A stretch of 64,000 bases of DNA, taken from contig DAOTXC010000195.1 of NCBI GenBank assembly GCA_034435555.1, forward strand, positions 697 to 64,696, written 5' to 3'. This document shows positions 310 through 50,287 of the stretch, one piece after another. The first letter of the stretch is position 1. Each line of letters opens with the position of its first letter. Made by a program: the position numbers and the translations under genes. Source of the DNA: Anaerolineae bacterium. Lineage in GTDB: Bacteria; Chloroflexota; Anaerolineae; B4-G1; SLSP01. The notes under the pieces were generated by a model. It ran no database searches, was not told the origin of the DNA, and saw nothing but the letters and a program-made list of their open reading frames with translations.

Positions 310-1218
310 ATGAGCAAGGTGAAGCAATGGCTAATCGTTTGGTTCAAGGCAGCGCGCGCCCCGTTTCTGGTGGTGAGCGCGATCCCGGCGTTGTTGGGCG
401 GTGTGATCGCCTATGCCCACGGCGCGTTCGATTGGACGGTCTTCCTGCTGGCGGCGGGCGGCGTCGTGATGGCGCACTCGGCGGCGGATTTCATTGACGA
501 CTACTTCGACTATCAGCACGGGAATCTGGGGAACAAAGTGCAACAGTTCCACGACAGCCCGCTCATCAGCGGGGAGGTGACGTTGCGCCAGGTCTTGGTG
601 GCGACGATTCTGTGTGCAGCGCTGGCCGCTGCCGCCGGGATCGCCTTGCTGGTGCGCGTGGGCGCACCGGTGCTCATCATGGCGGCCATCGGCGGTTTCA
701 TCGTGCTCTTTTACACCTCGCCGCCGGTGCGGTTGAACTATCGCGGCCTGGGGGAAACGGCGCTCTTCGTGGCCTTTGGGCCGGCGCTCGTCTTCGGCGT
801 CTATTTTGTGCTCACAGAGACCTTCAGCTGGGTGCCCCTGCTCGCCTCTTTCCCGCTAGGAATCTTCACGATGAATGTGGGGATTGTGAGCAATACCTTC
901 GATTACGACGACGACGTGCGTTCGGGAAAGTACACGCTGCCGGTGCGCCTGGGACAGCAACGGGCAGTGCAATTGTTGGCCGTACTAACCGCCGTTGCTT
1001 ACATCGAATTAGTGGCGGCTATCGCGTTCGGCTGGCTGCCGCTGTGGTGCGCGTTGGGGCTGCTGACCTTGCCGCTCGGCGTGGACACGGTGCGTCTGAC
1101 GGCGCGCTACGCGGATTCGAAGCAATACGCGCCGGCCATGGGCCGCGCCATCGCGCTATCGGCGCTGATGGGGTTGTTGCTGAGCCTGGGGTATTGGCTT
1201 TCGGTGATGCTGGGATGA
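310..1218 (+). CDS. UbiA-family aromatic prenyltransferase (MenA/UbiA-like), polytopic membrane protein
   Basis: ATG at 310 is preceded by GGGAGG (298-303); the listed ORF 121..1218 is an upstream in-frame extension. The protein is multi-TM with Asp-rich patches typical of UbiA prenyltransferases (DDYFDYQHGN, NTFDYDDDVRSGK). Confidence 0.8.
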   Translation: MSKVKQWLIVWFKAARAPFLVVSAIPALLGGVIAYAHGAFDWTVFLLAAGGVVMAHSAADFIDDYFDYQHGNLGNKVQQFHDSPLISGEVTLRQVLVATILCAALAAAAGIALLVRVGAPVLIMAAIGGFIVLFYTSPPVRLNYRGLGETALFVAFGPALVFGVYFVLTETFSWVPLLASFPLGIFTMNVGIVSNTFDYDDDVRSGKYTLPVRLGQQRAVQLLAVLTAVAYIELVAAIAFGWLPLWCALGLLTLPLGVDTVRLTARYADSKQYAPAMGRAIALSALMGLLLSLGYWLSVMLG

Positions 1219-1248
1219 CAAAGGCGCGAACCAAGTTCGCGCCTTTGT
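1219..1248. terminator. GC-rich 13-bp hairpin between the convergent UbiA gene and tRNA-Pro (no clear U-tract)
   Basis: ACAAAGGCGCGAA-ccaag-TTCGCGCCTTTGT perfect inverted repeat immediately after the ubiA stop codon. Confidence 0.4.
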
Positions 1249-1266
1249 GCTTGAAGTCTTCCTCAG

Positions 1267-1340
1267 TCGGGGCATGCGGATTTGAACCGCAGACCTCACG
1301 GACCCGAACCGTGCGCGCTACCAAGCTGCGCTATGCCCCG
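1267..1340 (-). tRNA. tRNA-Pro (anticodon CGG)
   Basis: The reverse complement folds as a canonical cloverleaf with a 7-bp acceptor stem CGGGGCA/TGCCCCG and a TTCAAAT T-loop. The anticodon loop is TTCGGGT; CCA is not encoded. Confidence 0.85.
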
Positions 1341-1389
1341 ATGACCTCCGCATGATACCACATTTGTTCGCTTTCGCAAGCGCCTCTGC

Positions 1390-1417
1390 TTGCCCTTTTG
1401 TCTGAGGCTGGTATGAT
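1390..1417 (+). promoter_or_regulatory. candidate sigma70-type promoter for uppP (-35 TTGCCC, 16-nt spacer, -10 TATGAT)
   Basis: The hexamers lie about 30 nt upstream of the GTG start at 1446. Confidence 0.3.
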
Positions 1418-43466: not shown

Positions 43467-46400
43467 ATGCGCTGCTCTGAATGTCAAAGTGAGAATCCTG
43501 AACAGGCTCTGCAATGTCAACATTGCGGAGCGCCCCTGCCTGATCCATACCAAGCCTTGACGCAGGCCCAGGAGTCTCTGGCGCGGCTCAGGCGCTTTGT
43601 GCCCGCTGTCATCGCGGAGGGGCTGCTGAAGGATCAGGAGCGTCTGCGCGGAGAGCGGCGCGAGGTCGCTGTGCTCTTCGCCGATGCCGTGGAGTTCACC
43701 CACCTCTCGGCCTCGCTCGACGCCGAATCGGCCTTCGAGCTCATCAACGATCTACTCAACCGCCTAGTCGCCTGCGTCCATCGCTACGATGGGCTGGTGG
43801 ACAAATTCACTGGCGATGGGCTGATGGCCGTCTTCGGCGCGCCCAACGCCCACGAAAACGATGCGGAGCTAGCAGTGCGAGCCGCGCTCGATATGCAGCA
43901 GGCGATGGCGGAATTCGCGCCCATCGCCCGCGCCAAACTGGGCGCACCGTTGCAGATACGCATCGGCATCCACAGCGGGCTAGCGATCGCCGGCATCCTC
44001 GGCGGGAAGGAACAGGCCGCCTACACGGTCATCGGCGAGACGGTCAATCTGGCTGCCCGACTCGAATCGCAAGCGCGACCGGGCAACGTTCTGGTCAGCG
44101 CCAGGGTGCATCAACAGACGCGGGCCTTCTTCAACTATCAATCCGTGGGGCAAGCATCCATCAAGGGCCTCGCGCAGCCGATGCAAATTTACGAGGCGCT
44201 CAGCAGCCGCTCCGATCCGCTTTCCGCGCGCGGGGTCGCCGGCGTTACCTCCATCCTGCTAGGGCGCAACACCGAGCTGCAACAACTGCAAAGCGTGCTC
44301 AACACCTTCTTGAACCGTCAAGAGGGGTGGTTCATCACCATCCGTGGCGAAGCGGGGATCGGCAAATCGCGGTTGGTGAGCGAGTGGCTGGCGCAGACGA
44401 CCCCGGACCAAATCACCGTCTGGCAGGGGCGCGGACTTCCCTACGCTCAGGGCGTTGGCTATGGCATCTTCCGCTCGCTGCTCCAGGATGCGATCAATGC
44501 TGCCCCGCCGGAGCAGCCCTGGGATGCACAGGTTTCCCCCGCCCTACGCCCGTTCCTACGGCTGATCCTGGAGCTGCCCCTCAGCGAGGAGGAAGAACGC
44601 AGTCTAGGCTATCTGGAACCGGAGCGGATCAAACAGCTCAGCGTGCTGGCGATACGAGAATGGATCCTGGCGGCGGCCCGCAAGCGTCCGCTGGTGCTCA
44701 TCTTTGACGACTTCCATTGGGCCGACGATCTCTCCGTTGCTGCGATGGAAATCCTCCACCAGCTGCCCCAAGAGGCCCAGGTTATCTTCTGCATCATCAC
44801 ACGCCCCCAGCCCCAAGCGTCGCCGGCCTTCTTGCCCCAGCCGCACATTCCCACCCCACAACGCACGCTGGCGATCGCACTCCAGCCCCTATCCCCCCCG
44901 CATAGTCGGGCATTATTGGCGCACATGGTCAACCTGGAAGGGCTGAGCGAGGCTGTGATCGAAACCATTCTCACTCACGCCGAAGGCAACCCCTTCTACA
45001 TTGAAGAATTTGTGCGCATGTTGATCGAAAAGGAGATGCTCCACCTGGAGGACACACAGTGGCAGGTCATCTCGCCGGTGGCGCTGCAAGCGATGGAGAT
45101 CCCCACCTCCCTGCGCAGCCTGATGATGGCCCGTGTGGATCGGCTGGCAGAGGATCAACGCGATGTATTGAGCTCCGCTGCCGTGATTGGGTTGCAGTTC
45201 GACGCAGGCTTGCTCGAAGAGGTAGAACGTCGCCTGCACGGCAGCACCAACACGCTGGCGATTCTCGAACGCCTGCACGAGTTGGGGCTGCTCGTGAAAC
45301 GTCCCGGCGCGGGCGAGGGAATCTACGCCTTCCGCCACATCATCACCCAAGAGACGATTTACAACAGTATGTTGCGCAGCCAACGCCCCGATCTACATCG
45401 CACCGTGGCGGAAGCCATCGAAACGCGCTACGCCGCCGAGCTCCACAATCAGGCCGAGATATTGGCGTTCCATTATGACCGCGCCTATGTGCGCGATCAG
45501 GCGCTGACCTACGCCATCCTCGCTGGAGATCGCGCACGCGCACGCTTCGCCAACCGCGAGGCCATCGAATATTACAGCCGCGCCCTGCAGCTCTCGCAGC
45601 ACCTCAGCCAGCGCCAGATCGAACGCTGGCAGGCCGTCGTCGGCCTGGGCGAGGTCTATCAGCACATCGGCGAATACGAGGAAGCAACCGCCTGTTATCA
45701 GGCCGGCATGGAGGAATGGAAAGCGCCCCCACCGGAAAAACAGGCGCAAGTCCTGCTGCGGCTGGGTCAGGTGTGGGACAAACGCGGCGACTTGGAGAAG
45801 GCAGAAAAGCGGCTGCGCGAAGGTGTGGATTTGATTGACACAGCGACGGAACCACAGCCTCAGATGCGCGCCCAATTCCTCTCGGAGCTGGGATGGATCA
45901 CCTTGCGGCGGGGCCAATTGACCGCAGCGCAGCAGCTCCTGGAAGAGGGGCTGGCTCTAGTGACAGAGACCCGCCATTACGATGTCCTCTCTTCGATCCT
46001 CAACCGGCTCGGCGCGATCTATTATCACCGCAGCGAATGGACAAAGGCCGCCGATTACGTCAAGCAGGCGCTCGAAATTCGGGAACAGTGGGGCGACATC
46101 GTGGGGATGGCCCGCTCCTACAACAACCTGGCGATTGTCAACAAATATGCCGGCGATTGGGATCAAGCCCTGCACAACTATCAACGCAGCCTGGAGCTGA
46201 TGAAGCAGATCGGCGAAATGGAGGGGTTGGCGCTCGCCTACACCAATCTAGGCGTGCTCTATACCGAGCGGGCAGAGTGGGAGAAGGCCGGGGAGACGCT
46301 TCAGCAAAGTCTAGCCATCACGCAACGCATCGCGCATCCCTACGAGCTGGCCCAGGCATACATGAATCTAGGGCGACTATACCTGCGCCGAGGCGATCAC

Positions 46401-46874
46401 GCCGAAGCCAAGCGCCATCTGGAAGCAGCGCGTCCTCTCTACGAGGAGGCCGGCGCCGGCGCCAATCTGAGCCTCAACGATGTGTACGAGCTTGAGGGCT
46501 ATCTGAGCATCGAGAAAGGCGATCCGGAAAGCGCGCAGCAGTGGTCACAACGCAGCTACGAGCTGCTGCACGACATCACCGACACCTCAGAGGATGCCAT
46601 CGAATGGGGGCGCTACCACCTGCTCAAGGGGCGGATCAGCTACACGGCAGGGGATTTGACCACGGCGCGAGAACACTACGAGCGCAGCCTGGCGCACTTC
46701 GAGAATAAGGGAATCACCATTGAGCTGGGACGCGCAGCCTACGCACTCGCCCAGCTGCATCTGGACGAAGACAACCCGGTCGCCGCAGACCCCTTCCTCC
46801 AGACTGCCCTGAAGGTCTTCGAGCAATTGGGCGCGCGCCACGATCTCGAACTGGCGCGGCAGCTCCAGCCATAG
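43467..46874 (+). CDS. multidomain signalling protein: N-terminal zinc ribbon, class III adenylyl/guanylyl cyclase domain, AAA/NB-ARC-like ATPase, C-terminal TPR array
   Basis: CSECQ...CQHCG zinc ribbon. Cyclase motifs VAVLFADAVEFT and FTGDGLMAVFGAP. A P-loop GEAGIGKSRL. Long TPR-like repeats with AYNNLA/AYTNLG patterns. Confidence 0.8.
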   Translation: MRCSECQSENPEQALQCQHCGAPLPDPYQALTQAQESLARLRRFVPAVIAEGLLKDQERLRGERREVAVLFADAVEFTHLSASLDAESAFELINDLLNRLVACVHRYDGLVDKFTGDGLMAVFGAPNAHENDAELAVRAALDMQQAMAEFAPIARAKLGAPLQIRIGIHSGLAIAGILGGKEQAAYTVIGETVNLAARLESQARPGNVLVSARVHQQTRAFFNYQSVGQASIKGLAQPMQIYEALSSRSDPLSARGVAGVTSILLGRNTELQQLQSVLNTFLNRQEGWFITIRGEAGIGKSRLVSEWLAQTTPDQITVWQGRGLPYAQGVGYGIFRSLLQDAINAAPPEQPWDAQVSPALRPFLRLILELPLSEEEERSLGYLEPERIKQLSVLAIREWILAAARKRPLVLIFDDFHWADDLSVAAMEILHQLPQEAQVIFCIITRPQPQASPAFLPQPHIPTPQRTLAIALQPLSPPHSRALLAHMVNLEGLSEAVIETILTHAEGNPFYIEEFVRMLIEKEMLHLEDTQWQVISPVALQAMEIPTSLRSLMMARVDRLAEDQRDVLSSAAVIGLQFDAGLLEEVERRLHGSTNTLAILERLHELGLLVKRPGAGEGIYAFRHIITQETIYNSMLRSQRPDLHRTVAEAIETRYAAELHNQAEILAFHYDRAYVRDQALTYAILAGDRARARFANREAIEYYSRALQLSQHLSQRQIERWQAVVGLGEVYQHIGEYEEATACYQAGMEEWKAPPPEKQAQVLLRLGQVWDKRGDLEKAEKRLREGVDLIDTATEPQPQMRAQFLSELGWITLRRGQLTAAQQLLEEGLALVTETRHYDVLSSILNRLGAIYYHRSEWTKAADYVKQALEIREQWGDIVGMARSYNNLAIVNKYAGDWDQALHNYQRSLELMKQIGEMEGLALAYTNLGVLYTERAEWEKAGETLQQSLAITQRIAHPYELAQAYMNLGRLYLRRGDHAEAKRHLEAARPLYEEAGAGANLSLNDVYELEGYLSIEKGDPESAQQWSQRSYELLHDITDTSEDAIEWGRYHLLKGRISYTAGDLTTAREHYERSLAHFENKGITIELGRAAYALAQLHLDEDNPVAADPFLQTALKVFEQLGARHDLELARQLQP

Positions 46875-46943
46875 CCACCGGTTCCACCACGAAAAAACAG
46901 GGGGAGTCGCGTGACTCCCCCTGTTGATTTACCAGTCAGGGAC

Positions 46944-49169
46944 TTAATCCCCGCCGACCCACATATTCTGGAAGATGTAGCCGGCCCAACTCTCCGGGCC
47001 GCCCGCCCAGCTTTCAGGGCCACCGGCCCAACTCTCCGGGCCGCCCGCCCAACTCTCCGGGCCGCTTACCCAGCTGCCGTACCACTGAATCCAGGTCTGG
47101 AACCAGGCGTACCACCCGGCCCAACTTTCCGGGCCACCCGCCCAACTTTCGGGGCCGCCTGCCCAACTTTCGGGGCCACCGGCCCAGCTTTCGGGGCCAC
47201 CGGCCCAACTTTCGGGGCCGCCTGCCCAACTTTCGGGGCCGCCCGCCCAACTCTCCGGGCCACCGGCCCAACTTTCGGGGCCACCCGCCCAGGTCATGTA
47301 CCAGGCGTACCAGCTCTGGAACCAGGCATACCAGCCGGCCCAACTTTCGGGGCCACCGGCCCAGCTTTCAGGGCCGCCCGCCCAACTCTCCGGGCCACCG
47401 GCCCAGCTTTCAGGGCCACCCGCCCAGCTCTCCGGGCCATTGACCCAGAGCATGTACCAGCCAGCCCAACTTTCGGGGCCGCCCGCCCAACTCTCCGGGC
47501 CATTTGCCCATGTGGTGTAGCTACCGGCCCAGCTTTCGGGGCCACCGGCCCAACTCTCCGGGCCACCGGCCCAGCTTTCGGGGCCGCCCGCCCAACTCTC
47601 CGGGCCATCCGCCCAACTGAGGAAGTCGCCGCCCCAGTTACCGGCCCAACTTTCAGGGCCGCCCGCCCAACTCTCCGGGCCACCGGCCCAGCTGCTATAG
47701 CCACCGGCCCAACTCTCAGGCCCCAACCCACGGAGCAGAAACTCGCCCGTCTCAGAATCGTAGGTCGTCCAGCCCCAGTAATGCTCGACGCCCGACATAT
47801 CCAGGACAATATCGAGGCCGACGTTAGCGACGCCTTCGATGTCCGCGTAGACGGCATCGGGCGCCCAGACACGGCCCGCGCCCTGCTGCCAGATGCTGTA
47901 GGCGGCCAGGCCGGTCTCTTCATCGAACTGCGGCCGCGCCGTTACCATCAAGCGATACTTGATCTCATCCGGGGTGAGCGTGGGGTCTTCGCTGAGCATC
48001 AGCGCCACAATGCCCGACACAACTGCCGAGGACGATGAGGTTCCGGCCATTCGGAAGTAATACGCCGGCAGCCGGTAGTCCGGGTGCTCCTGGCTCAAGA
48101 CGGTGCTCTCGCGCATCAGTGAGACCATGTGCGCCCCCGGCGCGATCACGTCCGGCTTGACGAAAGCCTCGTAGGTGGGGCCAGTAGCGGAGAACGGCGC
48201 CAGATAGTCATCGCCAAAATCGTTGGGGGTGTAGTTGTCGGTGAAGGCCCCCACAGTGATGATGTAGGGATTGTTGCCCGGCACGCCCACGGTCATTGGA
48301 TCGGGGCCGGCATTGCCGGCGCTCGCCACCACCGTGATGCCCGAATACCAGGCCGCCATCATCGAAAGGTTGAGCGGATCCGCCCAGTAGGGTGAGAACG
48401 GGGGCGAGTAGATGGAGGCATTCAACACGCGGATGTTGTACTCCTCTTGATTTAGCACGGCCCACTCGATGCCTCGCAGCACGTCAGCGTAAGTGCCCAC
48501 CCCGTCTTCATTCAGCACCCGAATCGCCACCAGATTGACGCCAGGCGCTACACCCTTGTAATCCCCATTAGGTCTCTGATAATCGCTATTGGCGATAATG
48601 CCAGCGACGTGGGTGCCATGCCCGGAGGGATCGCGCGGCGACTGATTCAGCCTGTTGCCGGTGTAAAGCTCATCCTCAATGGCGTCGTAATAGGCGAGGA
48701 AGCGAATGTTGTTAGCCGGATCGCGACGCAGATAGTTCAAGGTGGGGTCAATACCGGTGTCCAGCACCGCGACCGTGACTCCCTGGCCGATGTTACCGGC
48801 GTCCCAGACCTCCTGTGCACCGATGACACGGACAAAGTCCACCTCAGTCTCTACACCGCTGCGCTCAACCGCCCGGTCAAGTGTGATGTTCAACACGCCT
48901 GCCTGATGGGAGAGTTGCGCCAGTTGCGCCTCTGAGACCGTGGCAACGACAGCGTTGATGATGCTAATATCGTAGGCCACCGCGCCCTGTACCGCCTGAA
49001 CCGCGTCAGCCGCTGCCTCGATACTTGTGCCCTGCACAATCACCTGCACAGAGGTAACCCTGGACTGTGCGGGGAAAGCGCCTGCTAATGCCGTGAGGAG
49101 TAGGGAGAAGACGATCAACAAACTGATTGACTTGGCTTTCATGATCCACCTCGCTTTAATTACGCTCAT
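46944..49169 (-). CDS. secreted subtilisin-like serine protease (S8) with a C-terminal tail of tandem GGPESWA heptad repeats
   Basis: Signal peptide, then the catalytic triad motifs VAVLDTGI, HGTHVAG and GTSSSSAVVSG. These are followed by a roughly 260-aa low-complexity repeat region. Confidence 0.9.
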   Translation of the reverse strand: MSVIKARWIMKAKSISLLIVFSLLLTALAGAFPAQSRVTSVQVIVQGTSIEAAADAVQAVQGAVAYDISIINAVVATVSEAQLAQLSHQAGVLNITLDRAVERSGVETEVDFVRVIGAQEVWDAGNIGQGVTVAVLDTGIDPTLNYLRRDPANNIRFLAYYDAIEDELYTGNRLNQSPRDPSGHGTHVAGIIANSDYQRPNGDYKGVAPGVNLVAIRVLNEDGVGTYADVLRGIEWAVLNQEEYNIRVLNASIYSPPFSPYWADPLNLSMMAAWYSGITVVASAGNAGPDPMTVGVPGNNPYIITVGAFTDNYTPNDFGDDYLAPFSATGPTYEAFVKPDVIAPGAHMVSLMRESTVLSQEHPDYRLPAYYFRMAGTSSSSAVVSGIVALMLSEDPTLTPDEIKYRLMVTARPQFDEETGLAAYSIWQQGAGRVWAPDAVYADIEGVANVGLDIVLDMSGVEHYWGWTTYDSETGEFLLRGLGPESWAGGYSSWAGGPESWAGGPESWAGNWGGDFLSWADGPESWAGGPESWAGGPESWAGGPESWAGSYTTWANGPESWAGGPESWAGWYMLWVNGPESWAGGPESWAGGPESWAGGPESWAGGPESWAGWYAWFQSWYAWYMTWAGGPESWAGGPESWAGGPESWAGGPESWAGGPESWAGGPESWAGGPESWAGGPESWAGWYAWFQTWIQWYGSWVSGPESWAGGPESWAGGPESWAGGPESWAGYIFQNMWVGGD
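46980..47745 (-). repeat. tandem 21-nt coding repeats (about 37 units, consensus GGCCCGGAGAGTTGGGCNGGNGGC) encoding (GGPESWA)n, interrupted by WYAWFQ(S/T)W linkers
   Basis: Near-identical 21-mers are visible directly in the DNA. They yield mirror-image spurious ORFs on both strands (46911..48038 +, 47294..47923 -). Confidence 0.9.
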
Positions 49170-49245
49170 CGAAAGATAGAAACACTAATGGGAGGGAAGT
49201 TAGATTCCCTCTTACCTAATTCTAACATTATTCAAACTCTATGGC

Positions 49246-49265
49246 AATAGTACTTAAGTACTATT
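49246..49265. promoter_or_regulatory. perfect 20-bp palindrome AATAGTACTTAAGTACTATT in the AT-rich region upstream of the S8 protease gene (candidate operator)
   Basis: The sequence is its own reverse complement. It lies about 80-95 nt upstream of the protease start at 49169, in the only AT-rich stretch of the neighbourhood. Confidence 0.35.
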
Positions 49266-49313: not shown

Positions 49314-49357
49314 ACCAACAAAATCCCGCCCACGGGCTTGTAAACCCGTGGGCGGGA
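49314..49357 (-). terminator. intrinsic terminator after the HhH membrane-protein gene
   Basis: 13-bp perfect stem TCCCGCCCACGGG-cttgtaaa-CCCGTGGGCGGGA, followed on the minus strand by ATTTTGTT. Confidence 0.6.
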
Positions 49358-49401: not shown

Positions 49402-49914
49402 CTACGTTACCCGTCTGCCGCCTTTGAGCGAATCTTGTAACGCCATCAGCGCATCCCAATCCCCAGCCGCGGCCAATGCGGCCTGCTCCGGCCAGGTGGT
49501 AGGATCTGCAATCCGCCCAATCCCAGCATCATCGAGAATCACGCGCAGCATTGCCACATCCGAAGCTGCCAGCTGCGCAAAGGTACGGATCCCCGCATCC
49601 TGGAAGAGCCGGGAAATCTTTGGCCCGATCCCCTCAATGCGTCGCAGATCATCGGGAGCGCGCTCCTCTTTCTCCGAAATCTCGACCGCATTCGGCCCGC
49701 GGTCATCCTGCAAGACGACCCCCTGCCGCGCCTGGGGCGTTCTCCCACCCTCAGCTCTGCGTGATTCCTGGAGCCACCACCACAGCAACGTCAAGGTCAG
49801 AGAAATGATGAGACCCAATAACCACCATCCCCAGTCACAATCCTGAGCGTCCCGCTGCGCCGCTGCCCAGGGATTGATCTCAGCCCACCGACGTCGCTTC
49901 AATCTCGTTTCCAT
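49402..49914 (-). CDS. membrane protein with a C-terminal helix-hairpin-helix domain
   Basis: Start at METRLKRRRW. One TM helix (WWLLGLIISLTLTLLWWWL) and an IEGIGPKISRLFQDAGIRTFAQLA HhH motif. The first 29 codons of the listed ORF are unsupported. Confidence 0.4.
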   Translation of the reverse strand: METRLKRRRWAEINPWAAAQRDAQDCDWGWWLLGLIISLTLTLLWWWLQESRRAEGGRTPQARQGVVLQDDRGPNAVEISEKEERAPDDLRRIEGIGPKISRLFQDAGIRTFAQLAASDVAMLRVILDDAGIGRIADPTTWPEQAALAAAGDWDALMALQDSLKGGRRVT

Positions 49915-50059
49915 ATTGCACTCCTTGTCACTTTGGTTCAGGTCACCTCTGTTGACCTGAGTATACAACAGAACAGAAGGCATACCAAACAGGGGAGCCA
50001 AGTAGCGGGGGATAAAGAAAACAGCCGGGCGCGAAACCCGGCTATGATTTGATCACCCA

Positions 50060-50131
50060 TGGCGAAGGGCAGATTCGAACTGCCAACCAAGGGCTTATGA
50101 GTCCCCTGCTCTGCCATTGAGCTACCTCGCC
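50060..50131 (-). tRNA. tRNA-Met (anticodon CAT), elongator-like; tRNA-Ile2 cannot be excluded
   Basis: Cloverleaf with acceptor stem GGCGAGG/CTTCGCC, anticodon loop CTCATAA and T-loop TTCGAAT. There is an A31-G39 mismatch in the anticodon stem. Confidence 0.75.
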
Positions 50132-50140
50132 ATAAAAAAA

Positions 50141-50212
50141 TAGCGGGGGATGGATTCGAACCACCGACCTTCGGGTTATGAGCCCGACGAGCTGCCACTG
50201 CTCCACCCCGCA
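50141..50212 (-). tRNA. initiator-type tRNA-fMet (anticodon CAT)
   Basis: Anticodon arm TCGGG-CTCATAA-CCCGA with the three consecutive G:C pairs diagnostic of initiators. The 5' end GCGGGGTGGAGCAG matches initiator consensus. Position 1:72 is unpaired (U·U as encoded). Confidence 0.8.
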
Positions 50213-50287
50213 TCGTGCTCTCATTATACACGGTCTTGAAAATACGTCAAGTCACCACGAGATGCCGCCCACAAGCAACATCAGCGA

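Follow-up and report, generated by a model that had tools for sequence, protein, structure and literature searches.

Protease gene and its tail

We analysed a stretch of 64,000 nucleotides (nt) from an Anaerolineae bacterium of the phylum Chloroflexota (assembly GCA_034435555.1, contig DAOTXC010000195.1, positions 697 to 64,696), referred to below as the window. A minus-strand gene in the window codes for a subtilase, a serine peptidase of family S8, with a C-terminal tail made of tandem seven-residue units, each carrying a tryptophan. Comparison with relatives showed that this tail is a rare Pro-Glu-Ser variant of a heptad that is widespread in subtilases of Chloroflexota. Lengths are given in amino acids (aa) and positions are those of the window. 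The gene and the parts of its product are as follows.

46944..49142, minus strand: subtilase coding sequence, 732 aa from ATG 49142; the list of open reading frames (ORFs) has it as 46944..49169
49062..49142, minus strand: Sec-type signal peptide MKAKSISLLIVFSLLLTALAGAFPAQS, read from the sequence, with an AlphaFold helix at residues 2-20
48840..49064, minus strand: N-terminal propeptide-like domain, I9-like, from a weak Pfam match and AlphaFold
47928..48788, minus strand: Peptidase_S8 catalytic domain, Pfam PF00082, aa 128-414
47730..47927, minus strand: post-catalytic linker ending in the conserved hairpin HYWGWTTYDSETGEFLLR directly before the repeats, from the clade motif and AlphaFold
46947..47729, minus strand: Trp heptad tail, 261 aa with 29 heptads, from aa 481 to the protein end
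47610..47642, minus strand: irregular 11-aa unit GNWGGDFLSWA, shifting the register by 4
47286..47336, minus strand: Trp/Tyr-rich insert GWYAWFQSWYAWYMTWA, 17 aa, a low-confidence helix in the AlphaFold model
47118..47285, minus strand: block 6, eight GGPESWA units, the most homogeneous block, with 4, 7 or 8 units across lineages
47067..47117, minus strand: second Trp/Tyr-rich insert GWYAWFQTWIQWYGSWV, 17 aa, from the sequence, orthologue comparison and AlphaFold

The start codon is likely to be ATG 49142, which has a Shine-Dalgarno sequence GAGGTG 5 nt upstream; an identical 732-aa protein (P0003) in public collections agrees with this start. An alternative in-frame ATG at 49169, further upstream, would give a product of 741 aa, and the residue numbers used here follow this 741-aa reading.

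Membership in family S8 is clear from the match to PF00082 (E=3.9e-49; 167.9 bits, the cut-off being 21.8); NCBIfam models of other S8 subfamilies matched below threshold only. The triad motifs VLDTG (aa 135-139), HGTH (aa 184-187) and GTSSS (aa 376-380), as well as the oxyanion motif SAGN (aa 283-286), consist of residues that are invariant or nearly so across the alignment of 122 sequences described below. AlphaFold predicted the catalytic domain with a predicted local distance difference test score (pLDDT) mostly >90, and the propeptide region as a confident beta-alpha-beta fold with pLDDT >90; to the latter region (aa 66-102) the Pfam model Inhibitor_I9 gave a match with E=0.096 and 13.8 bits, under its curated cut-off of 21.2. 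The best solved relative by sequence is the subtilisin-like serine protease 3afg, with a match (E=1e-48) spanning the propeptide end and the catalytic domain. Judged by these sequence features, the gene is predicted to encode a secreted, catalytically intact subtilase. An earlier note on this DNA, made from the letters alone, had described the product as a secreted S8 protease that ends in Trp-rich repeats over roughly 260 aa, and on both points it was right.

The tail holds 43 Trp, 61 Gly and 29 acidic residues, with no basic residue at all. We counted 26 xGPESWA units, 21 of them exact GGPESWA, which together with GGYSSWA, GSYTTWA and GWYMLWV make 29 heptads, not about 37 as the earlier note had it. 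The PESWA units fall into blocks of 1, 2, 4, 2, 5, 8 and 4. The array is interrupted, with a shift of register, by the 11-aa unit and the two 17-aa inserts, and a 12-aa end comes last. Spacing between Trp residues inside the 17-aa inserts is 3, 4, 3, 4, as along one face of a helix, and the insert GWYAWFQSWYAWYMTWA is also kept in an orthologue (P0004) from an uncultured Anaerolineales genome.

Two further ORFs run across the repeats. The plus-strand ORF 46911..48038 (375 aa) was rejected as a gene, being an antisense reading of the repeats. The minus-strand ORF 47294-47923, in another frame, is a by-product of the GC-rich periodic sequence and no gene.

A heptad common to Chloroflexota subtilases

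A search with the protease domain yielded 2475 proteins at E<=1e-30. Where the organisms of these proteins were named, they were Chloroflexota, either Anaerolineae or metagenome-assembled genomes of Thermoflexales, and many of the proteins carry the tag ‘AprX’ from JGI. We aligned the best 120 protease-domain matches together with two matches from a search with the tail (122 sequences in total). In 117 of the 122 aligned sequences we observed, after the catalytic domain, at least five Trp-Trp spacings of exactly seven residues. Thus, the tail is not a one-off addition to the protease that the earlier note called ‘otherwise ordinary’.

The unit profile after a Trp reads Ala 55% or Ser 37%, Gly 83%, Gly 86%, Tyr 70% or Phe 15%, a variable residue, Ser 66% or Thr 10%, and the next Trp at 100%. 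The core of the heptad is W-[A/S]-G-G; the three further residues are uniform in nearly all units of a protein and differ between lineages. A typical member has the hairpin HYxGWTxYDxxTGEF, 4-5 units, the irregular unit TTNWSGDFNxWI, about 10 more units and the cap GDPxWAxAFANLxNVP...VGINxWV, in this order. The hairpin motif is kept clade-wide, and AlphaFold models it as two short strands with medium confidence. In the protein sequence of some relatives two kinds of unit take turns, e.g. GGYHSWA/GGYQSWA, giving a superperiod of 14 residues.

The window protein has the W-[A/S]-G-G-x-x-x array behind the catalytic domain and hairpin, which is a defining trait of the clade, and GNWGGDFLSWA is its counterpart of the clade-wide irregular unit. 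It departs from the clade at heptad position 3, where the aromatic residue is replaced by Pro in 26 of the 29 units; Tyr is retained at this position only in GGYSSWA, GSYTTWA and GWYMLWV. The clade cap, GDPxWAxAFANLxNVP...VGINxWVxxD in full, is reduced to ...NMWVGGD, and the array, with its added Trp-rich inserts, is about 1.5 times as long as usual in the clade. The orthologue (P0004/P0274) shares the PES variant and is likewise an outlier in the length of its array and in its reduced cap; within the JGI metagenome collection, a coding pattern for GGPESWA was found only in the lineage of the window and that of the orthologue.

Some relatives show how far the three free positions and the architecture can drift. 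The heptad of a member from Ardenticatenaceae (L060) is GGKWTWA, with two Trp and one Lys per unit. Larger relatives of about 1000-1550 aa (L049, L094, L022, L075; P0148, P0162, P0186, P0248) carry about 440 extra aa, inserted between propeptide and catalytic domain; L049 alone among them was run through Pfam, and its insert is a PQQ-like beta-propeller. Beyond the heptad array of L049 there are a PT-repeat linker and a disaggregatase-related domain, so that the array is not always C-terminal.

Restriction to S8 peptidases

We scanned one genome per species, 185,579 species in all, for a DNA pattern that encodes three W[AS]GGxxx units in a row, and obtained at least 119 loci, which were sorted by translation and a local S8 profile. 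At least 53 loci, from Chloroflexota or unclassified genomes, carry an S8 gene with a C-terminal array. The variable triplets of these arrays are very diverse, among them YES, YAS, FES, AYG, MAT, MAL, KWT, PAV, RQS, NRS and IGS. Apart from these and the Deinococcota genes described below, the listed loci either were fragments at contig ends or arose from reading other GC-rich repeats in the wrong frame; for the latter reason many loci with a single match (e.g. in Sorangium, Streptomyces and Actinomycetota) were discarded.

A second arrangement was observed in Deinococcota, where at least about 20 S8 genes have 3-7 xxAWAGG units between an I9-like propeptide and the catalytic domain. The carriers include Meiothermus granaticius (L011), M. 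hypogaeus (L051), Deinococcus pimensis (L086) and D. yunweiensis (L119), along with genomes of Trueperaceae and Thermaceae and loci L005, L008, L072, L088, L101, L108, L114, L116 and L121. Where the N-terminus could be read, these proteins look by sequence like lipoproteins. Pfam was run on three examples: the units precede the S8 domain by about 30 aa, and two of the three have C-terminal ricin-lectin or GH115_C-like domains. A motif PE[LVI]xAxG precedes the heptads. The same core as in Chloroflexota is found here on a distant S8 subfamily and on the opposite side of the catalytic domain.

Among the listed scan loci every clear in-frame array belonged to an S8 gene or to a contig-end fragment, with a single exception, L027. 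This locus, from an Anaerolineae genome, has at 1123-1413 (plus strand) a stand-alone gene of 90-96 aa for a signal peptide and eight GGYGxW[AS] heptads only. Directly upstream of it lies a gene whose product, judged by sequence alone, resembles a C-terminal processing peptidase of the S41 type containing a PDZ domain; this genome encodes a heptad subtilase (L040) as well. When 1.84 billion cluster representatives were searched with a profile, 290 matched, and we inspected 80 of the matches: true W[AS]GG arrays occurred with S8, and the other matches were unrelated Trp-periodic sequences. Searches with the tail were far less productive, with two matches for the tail alone in an index of 5.8 billion proteins and six short fragments for a 49-column heptad profile, probably because the handling of composition bias by HMMER suppressed long arrays; the family came to light through the protease-domain search and the DNA-pattern scan.

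From these searches the heptad appears to occur almost only beside S8 catalytic domains, after them in Chloroflexota and before them in Deinococcota. The earlier note had suggested looking for the repeat in other proteins and testing the tail for binding to peptidoglycan, S-layer or polysaccharide. The repeat was indeed found elsewhere, in other Chloroflexota and in Deinococcota, although no second heptad protein was seen in the 64-kb window. The near-exclusive linkage to S8 argues against a general role in cell-wall or S-layer binding, since a general wall or polysaccharide anchor would be expected to occur beyond S8 peptidases.

Repeat DNA, selection and copy number

Tandem Repeats Finder detected periodic arrays of 21/42/63 nt over 46980-47735 with 66-88% matches, and the 21-nt periodicity indicated by the earlier note for 46.9-47.8 kb is thus present. 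The units are not the near-identical or perfect DNA copies that the note described. The 21 GGPESWA units are spelled by 17 distinct 21-mers with a mean pairwise identity of 87.6%; no two neighbouring units are the same in DNA (16-20 of 21 bases agree), all differences are synonymous, and the longest exact repeat inside the array is 44 nt. Units two apart resemble each other more than adjacent ones (a 42-nt superperiod), and the codon sets CCG GAG AGT ..GCG and CCY GAA AGC ..GCC alternate. Ser codons are AGY only in the window and alternate between AGY and TCN in the orthologue (L003 6001-8115). That adjacent heptads avoid identical DNA resembles a natural codon scrambling of the repeat; the locus offers a natural case of a long array with units identical as protein yet scrambled at synonymous sites.

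Signs of a recent duplication are confined to block 6, where there is a 38-nt exact repeat at an offset of 63 nt, and the ‘recent expansion’ of the earlier note applies there at most. Perfect identity and recent expansion, from which it derived instability, do not apply to most of the array, in which units have diverged synonymously.

Comparison with the orthologue P0004 points to the protein level. The protease part is 71% identical to that of the window in amino acids and the tail 90%; among identical codons, synonymous differences amount to 53% in the tail and 60% in the protease part. As amino acid identity in the tail reaches 90% despite similar synonymous divergence, the tail peptide is under purifying selection, which shows that the array has been kept by selection on the peptide rather than by recent copying of DNA. 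The block plan of P0004 is that of the window save for block 6, with four units in place of eight. Heptads at matching positions of the two orthologues are not more alike in DNA than others (14.2 versus 14.3 of 18 bases; permutation p=0.69). Either synonymous sites are saturated or the arrays have been re-homogenised, and dating of the array is impossible.

Length variation, which the earlier note expected in the population, was seen across the family and in a sister lineage but not among assemblies of the lineage of the window itself. The four assemblies with the gene (the window, ENA k141_40054, JGI Ga0212126 and JGI Ga0209614) agree in the length of the gene; two of the contigs, the one from ENA and one from JGI, were compared base by base and differ from the window only by 2-3 synonymous single-nucleotide polymorphisms. 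Full-length members of the sister lineage have 704 versus 725 aa, with block 6 at four versus seven units, a 63-nt step. Two other clusters at >=90% identity have GGYSGWA in runs of 8, 7 or 5 and GGYTGWA in runs of 8, 7 or 3. Copy-number differences within such clusters always involve whole heptads inside homogeneous runs. Hence, of the traits of a slipped-strand contingency locus, we observed unit-number polymorphism between close relatives and no long runs of identical DNA; as the 21-nt unit preserves the frame, the variation is one of size, not of on/off switching.

The variable triplet can switch in all units at once: in one cluster of 90% identity (P0012, P0315, P0316, P0324) the heptads are GGAYGWA, GGYHGWA and GGYTGWA. 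A switch of this kind speaks for concerted evolution at a rapid pace, or else for diversifying selection acting on the triplet. Steps of whole heptads and concerted switches together show that the arrays evolve by unequal recombination or gene conversion with the W[AS]GG core constrained.

One has to consider that repeats of 21-63 nt pose problems in assembly and that some length differences among the metagenome-assembled relatives could be collapses. Still, we consider it extremely unlikely that the array or its length is an artefact of short-read assembly: the equal length in four assemblies, two of which differ from the window only by the few synonymous changes given above, the 44-nt limit on exact repeats along with synonymous differences that aid unique assembly, and the same block plan in the orthologue all speak against it.

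Convergent cyclase gene

Downstream of the protease gene lies a convergent neighbour.

43467..46874, plus strand: gene for a protein of 1135 aa with a zinc ribbon, an adenylate/guanylate cyclase domain, AAA_16 (STAND-type ATPase) and tetratricopeptide repeats (TPR), by Pfam
46896..46925, minus strand: terminator-like hairpin separating the protease gene from the convergent cyclase gene, from the sequence

We examined the 48 loci of the C-terminal type with at least 600 nt of downstream sequence. A homologue of the cyclase, with 29-61% identity to the window protein, is convergent and directly downstream in 29 of them (including L018, L021, L028, L029, L033, L034, L039, L043, L056, L063, L066, L070, L074, L095, L100, L105, L106 and L118), with a gap of 65-340 nt between the cyclase and subtilase genes. 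Such a conserved tail-to-tail pairing of genes is unusual.

Fold and known relatives of the tail

No Pfam or NCBIfam model matched the tail at E<=10, even when canonical tails of the clade were included; among the models without a match were CW_binding_1, SLH, GW, WxL and W_rich_C. The statement of the earlier note that the tail falls outside the named wall-binding, S-layer-homology, PPC and sorting domains therefore holds. In the literature, searched by topic and by motif strings (SWAGG, WAGGY, GGYASW, GGPESW etc.), we found no relevant description of the repeat; a paper on a Thermoflexus protease and one on conflict systems do not mention it.

The AlphaFold check proposed in the earlier note gave a divided answer, with the propeptide and the catalytic domain confident and no confident fold for the tail: its pLDDT was ~30 in the full window protein (122 sequences) and ~35 for a canonical tail (30 sequences). 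In comparisons with the PDB, the best match of the tail profile was the ice-recrystallisation inhibition protein of Lolium perenne (3ult, E=7e-4). The canonical tail weakly matched BpaC (7o23) at E=1.8e-4, in register (S-x-A-x-G) over about 14 units, and, again in register, the heads of UspA1 (3ntn) and CbpF (9u93). All these matches have a high composition bias, and the GGPESWA variant of the window had no match in the PDB.

Several known systems resemble the heptad subtilase in part. Tk-SP of Thermococcus kodakarensis (3afg) and other ‘AprX’-type S8 peptidases resemble it in having a signal peptide, the S8 domain and a C-terminal extension, and their N-propeptide has a possible counterpart in its I9-like domain. 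In Tk-SP the extension reportedly consists of a beta-jelly-roll domain followed by a C-terminal propeptide, which undergoes autoprocessing; the window protein has no jelly-roll, its extension being the Trp heptad array, for which no PDB relative was detected. The YadA-like heads (Hep_Hag) of trimeric autotransporters, in which two heptads form one turn of a left-handed beta-roll, likewise have seven-residue S-x-A-x-G repeats. They have, however, Val, Thr or Ile in the middle of the heptad where the tail has Trp, and they come from Proteobacteria and Fusobacteria, not Chloroflexota; the heptad subtilase lacks the neck, stalk and membrane anchor of these proteins, and Pfam YadA_head did not match at E<=10. 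The likeness to 3ult lies in a seven-residue period with Gly and small residues; that protein has no Trp and an unrelated biology, and the match probably comes from periodicity and composition. Aromatic wall-binding repeats (choline-binding CW_binding_1, GW, WxL, SLH, W_rich_C) are also Trp/Tyr-rich C-terminal repeats of secreted enzymes, but with a period of 20-80 aa and on many enzyme classes, whereas the heptad array has a period of 7 aa and was found in our searches almost only with S8.

Proposed role of the array

Most likely the array serves the protease itself, because its link to S8 domains holds in two phyla and at two positions. The particular reading that we favour, tentatively, is a protease-dedicated accessory module and not a general wall anchor, namely a tethered extension that is probably substrate-like and trimmed by the protease itself. 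Subtilisins have hydrophobic S1 and S4 subsites, a small S2 and a solvent-exposed S3. The heptad could be read as a subtilisin site with an aromatic residue or Pro at P4, a variable P3, a small P2 and Trp at P1, followed by Ala/Ser-Gly-Gly, and its pattern of conservation fits these subsites; the autoprocessing reported for the C-terminal propeptide of Tk-SP would be in keeping with this reading. The protease would bind and trim the extension, in cis or in trans, and trimming might set the latency of the protease, its release from the cell or its lifetime; in Deinococcota the heptads lie at the junction of propeptide and mature enzyme.

A number of considerations weigh against this proposal. 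Cleavage of the array is itself only proposed. The tail pLDDT of ~30-35, in the window protein and the canonical relative alike, neither supports nor excludes a fold. The hairpin, the irregular unit fixed after the 4th or 5th heptad, the C-terminal cap and the superperiod look like parts of a solenoid, not of a linear substrate, and the weak in-register matches to heptad beta-rolls (7o23, 3ult) point to a folded domain as well. We saw no visible covariation of the triplet with the substrate-cleft segments of the protease beyond what phylogeny gives. In addition, Pro at P4, as in the window variant, is no classical preference of subtilisins. Both a folded stack of beta-strands and Gly-Gly turns and an extended chain may be compatible with the array.

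One alternative is that the array forms an elongated folded domain, with five-residue beta-strands and Gly-Gly turns arranged as a beta-roll or hairpin ribbon with a ladder of Trp, and acts as a rigid stalk or a binding surface that keeps the protease on envelope, sheath or insoluble substrate. The strict seven-residue period, the invariant Trp and Gly-Gly, the small residues flanking Trp, the clade-wide capping motifs and the irregular unit at a fixed position would all suit such a domain, as would the 42-nt superperiod in the DNA of the window, the GGYHSWA/GGYQSWA alternation in relatives and the in-register matches to heptad beta-rolls (BpaC, UspA1, CbpF and the Lolium protein, LpIRI). A folded repeat thus draws support from the caps, the fixed irregular unit and the two-unit superperiod; against it weigh the extreme variability at three heptad positions out of seven and the lack of a confident AlphaFold model with either alignment. 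The free positions range over Tyr, Phe, Lys, Arg, Glu, Pro and Gly, which is hard to reconcile with a packed core, the PDB matches are weak and biased in composition, and YadA_head gave none. Besides, a binding module should be expected on other exoenzymes, while true arrays were found with S8 only, and the Deinococcota proteins, with heptads ahead of the catalytic domain, already have domains resembling lectins or carbohydrate-binding modules. On these grounds we regard a folded domain as possible but doubtful. The opposite idea, a low-complexity and largely disordered spacer generated by replication slippage or unequal crossing-over, with little function that depends on its sequence and at most a flexible, protease-resistant or ‘sticky’ aromatic linker, could explain the low AlphaFold confidence, the copy number varying among near-identical relatives, the triplet changing in concert and the internal position of the array in one relative, with a PT-repeat linker and a domain beyond it. 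Yet hardly any change is seen between two phyla in Trp, in Gly-Gly or in the residues on either side of Trp, the tail is better conserved than the catalytic domain between orthologues with nearly saturated synonymous sites, and the block layout is retained except in one block; furthermore, 16% Trp is atypical of disordered linkers. A mere spacer is therefore unlikely in our view.

The neighbouring gene invites one more explanation, which we find quite unlikely: the tail as a multi-copy peptide precursor. Self-cleavage behind every Trp of the tail would free about 26 copies of a lineage-specific heptapeptide (AGGPESW), which the cyclase-STAND-TPR protein would sense after uptake and turn into a cyclic-nucleotide signal. 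Tandem arrays of this sort are known from yeast, where the alpha-factor precursor is cleaved by the S8 protease Kex2, and TPR receptors of the RNPP type bind imported oligopeptides. In alpha-factor and the fungal Kex2-processed repeat proteins, too, identical short peptides, each with a subtilisin-family site, are kept by selection; protease and precursor are, however, separate proteins there, whereas the window array is fused to the protease, so that the likeness is one of analogy only. What could be said for a precursor is that units are identical within a protein, with a lineage-specific triplet that switches in concert at >=90% identity (AYG, YHG, YTG), that synonymous sites diverged without amino acid change, that the linkage to S8 is almost exclusive, that the zinc ribbon-cyclase-AAA_16-TPR gene is convergent and directly downstream in 29 of 48 loci and that the stand-alone secreted heptad-only protein L027 exists. 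This support is entirely circumstantial. The cyclase is absent in 19 of the 48 loci, convergent neighbours are not co-transcribed, no conserved oligopeptide transporter or modifying enzyme was seen beside the gene, and caps and irregular units would be needless in a precursor; we are also aware of no other protease that carries its own pheromone array, which counts against the idea.

Few enzymes have been studied as thoroughly as subtilases, whose folding, maturation and retention are largely governed by accessory domains (I9 propeptide, P-domain, PPC, jelly-roll). Our analysis points to an accessory element for which our searches found no family model or published description, an array that sits on hundreds of S8 sequence clusters in two phyla and at two positions, and apparently nearly nowhere else. 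Should the array prove to be a pseudo-substrate on a tether, or an extension trimmed by the protease itself, it would represent a new way to time or localise a secreted protease; a folded array would be a new Trp-ladder repeat fold, and a peptide precursor would amount to a new kind of peptide signalling in filamentous Chloroflexota. The cultured carriers among Deinococcota (Meiothermus granaticius, M. hypogaeus, Deinococcus pimensis and D. yunweiensis) open the question to laboratory work.

Upstream region and transcription unit

The region upstream of the protease gene contains two overlapping features.

49219..49247, minus strand: promoter-like site TTGCCA-17-TAGAAT, with TG ahead of the second hexamer, from the sequence
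49246-49265, strand not applicable: 20-bp perfect palindrome AATAGTACTTAAGTACTATT, a putative operator that overlaps the -35 hexamer; none is expected by chance

The orthologue L003 retains a promoter-like TTGTTA-17-TAGAAT, as read from its sequence. The 16-bp core of the palindrome, TAGTACTTAAGTACTA, is present without change upstream of the S8 gene in nine loci (L003 5878, L039 199, L043 485, L097 4309, L100 365, L110 5165, L118 2256, L123 4188 and L124 8945) and with 1-2 mismatches in L099 and L106, sitting 50-100 nt upstream of the S8 ORF. Among the orthologues with the exact core are some of only 55-70% identity at the protein level, and the eleven loci include orthologues at about 55-60%. 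Elsewhere in the ~1 Mb of fetched loci the core did not occur, nor did we find further copies of the palindrome in the 64-kb window. The earlier note had suggested dedicated regulation from the palindrome, and with a core that is exact in distant orthologues and abuts a conserved promoter-like site it does look like an operator. The window thus has both neighbourhood traits of the clade, the cyclase-AAA_16-TPR gene and the palindrome core; together, the conserved putative operator and the cyclase-STAND-TPR neighbour hint at a regulated module in Chloroflexota.

A lead to the cognate repressor comes from the LexA-box consensus of cyanobacteria, RGTACNNNDGTWCB, and the Gram-positive-like consensus AGTACWNWTGTACT (PMC3091678). 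The sequence AGTACTTAAGTACT fits the former fully and the latter at 13 of 14 positions; the comparison was made by eye. A LexA-type operator is accordingly put forward as a candidate; control of a secreted protease by a LexA-like repressor, if true, would be unexpected.

Terminator-like hairpins flank the protease gene, at 49324-49357, where the upstream HHH_5 gene ends, and at 46896-46925, and the protease gene is therefore likely to form a transcription unit of its own. The HHH_5 gene (49402-50001, minus strand) encodes a protein of 199 aa with a hydrophobic N-terminal segment, as read from the sequence, and has kept its place beside the protease gene in none but the closest relatives (L110, L123, L124). 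Just upstream of it there is an adjacent pair of tRNA-Met (CAT) genes, at 50059-50132 and 50141-50212 (minus strand); the ORF 49938..50231 is a spurious translation of these two genes.

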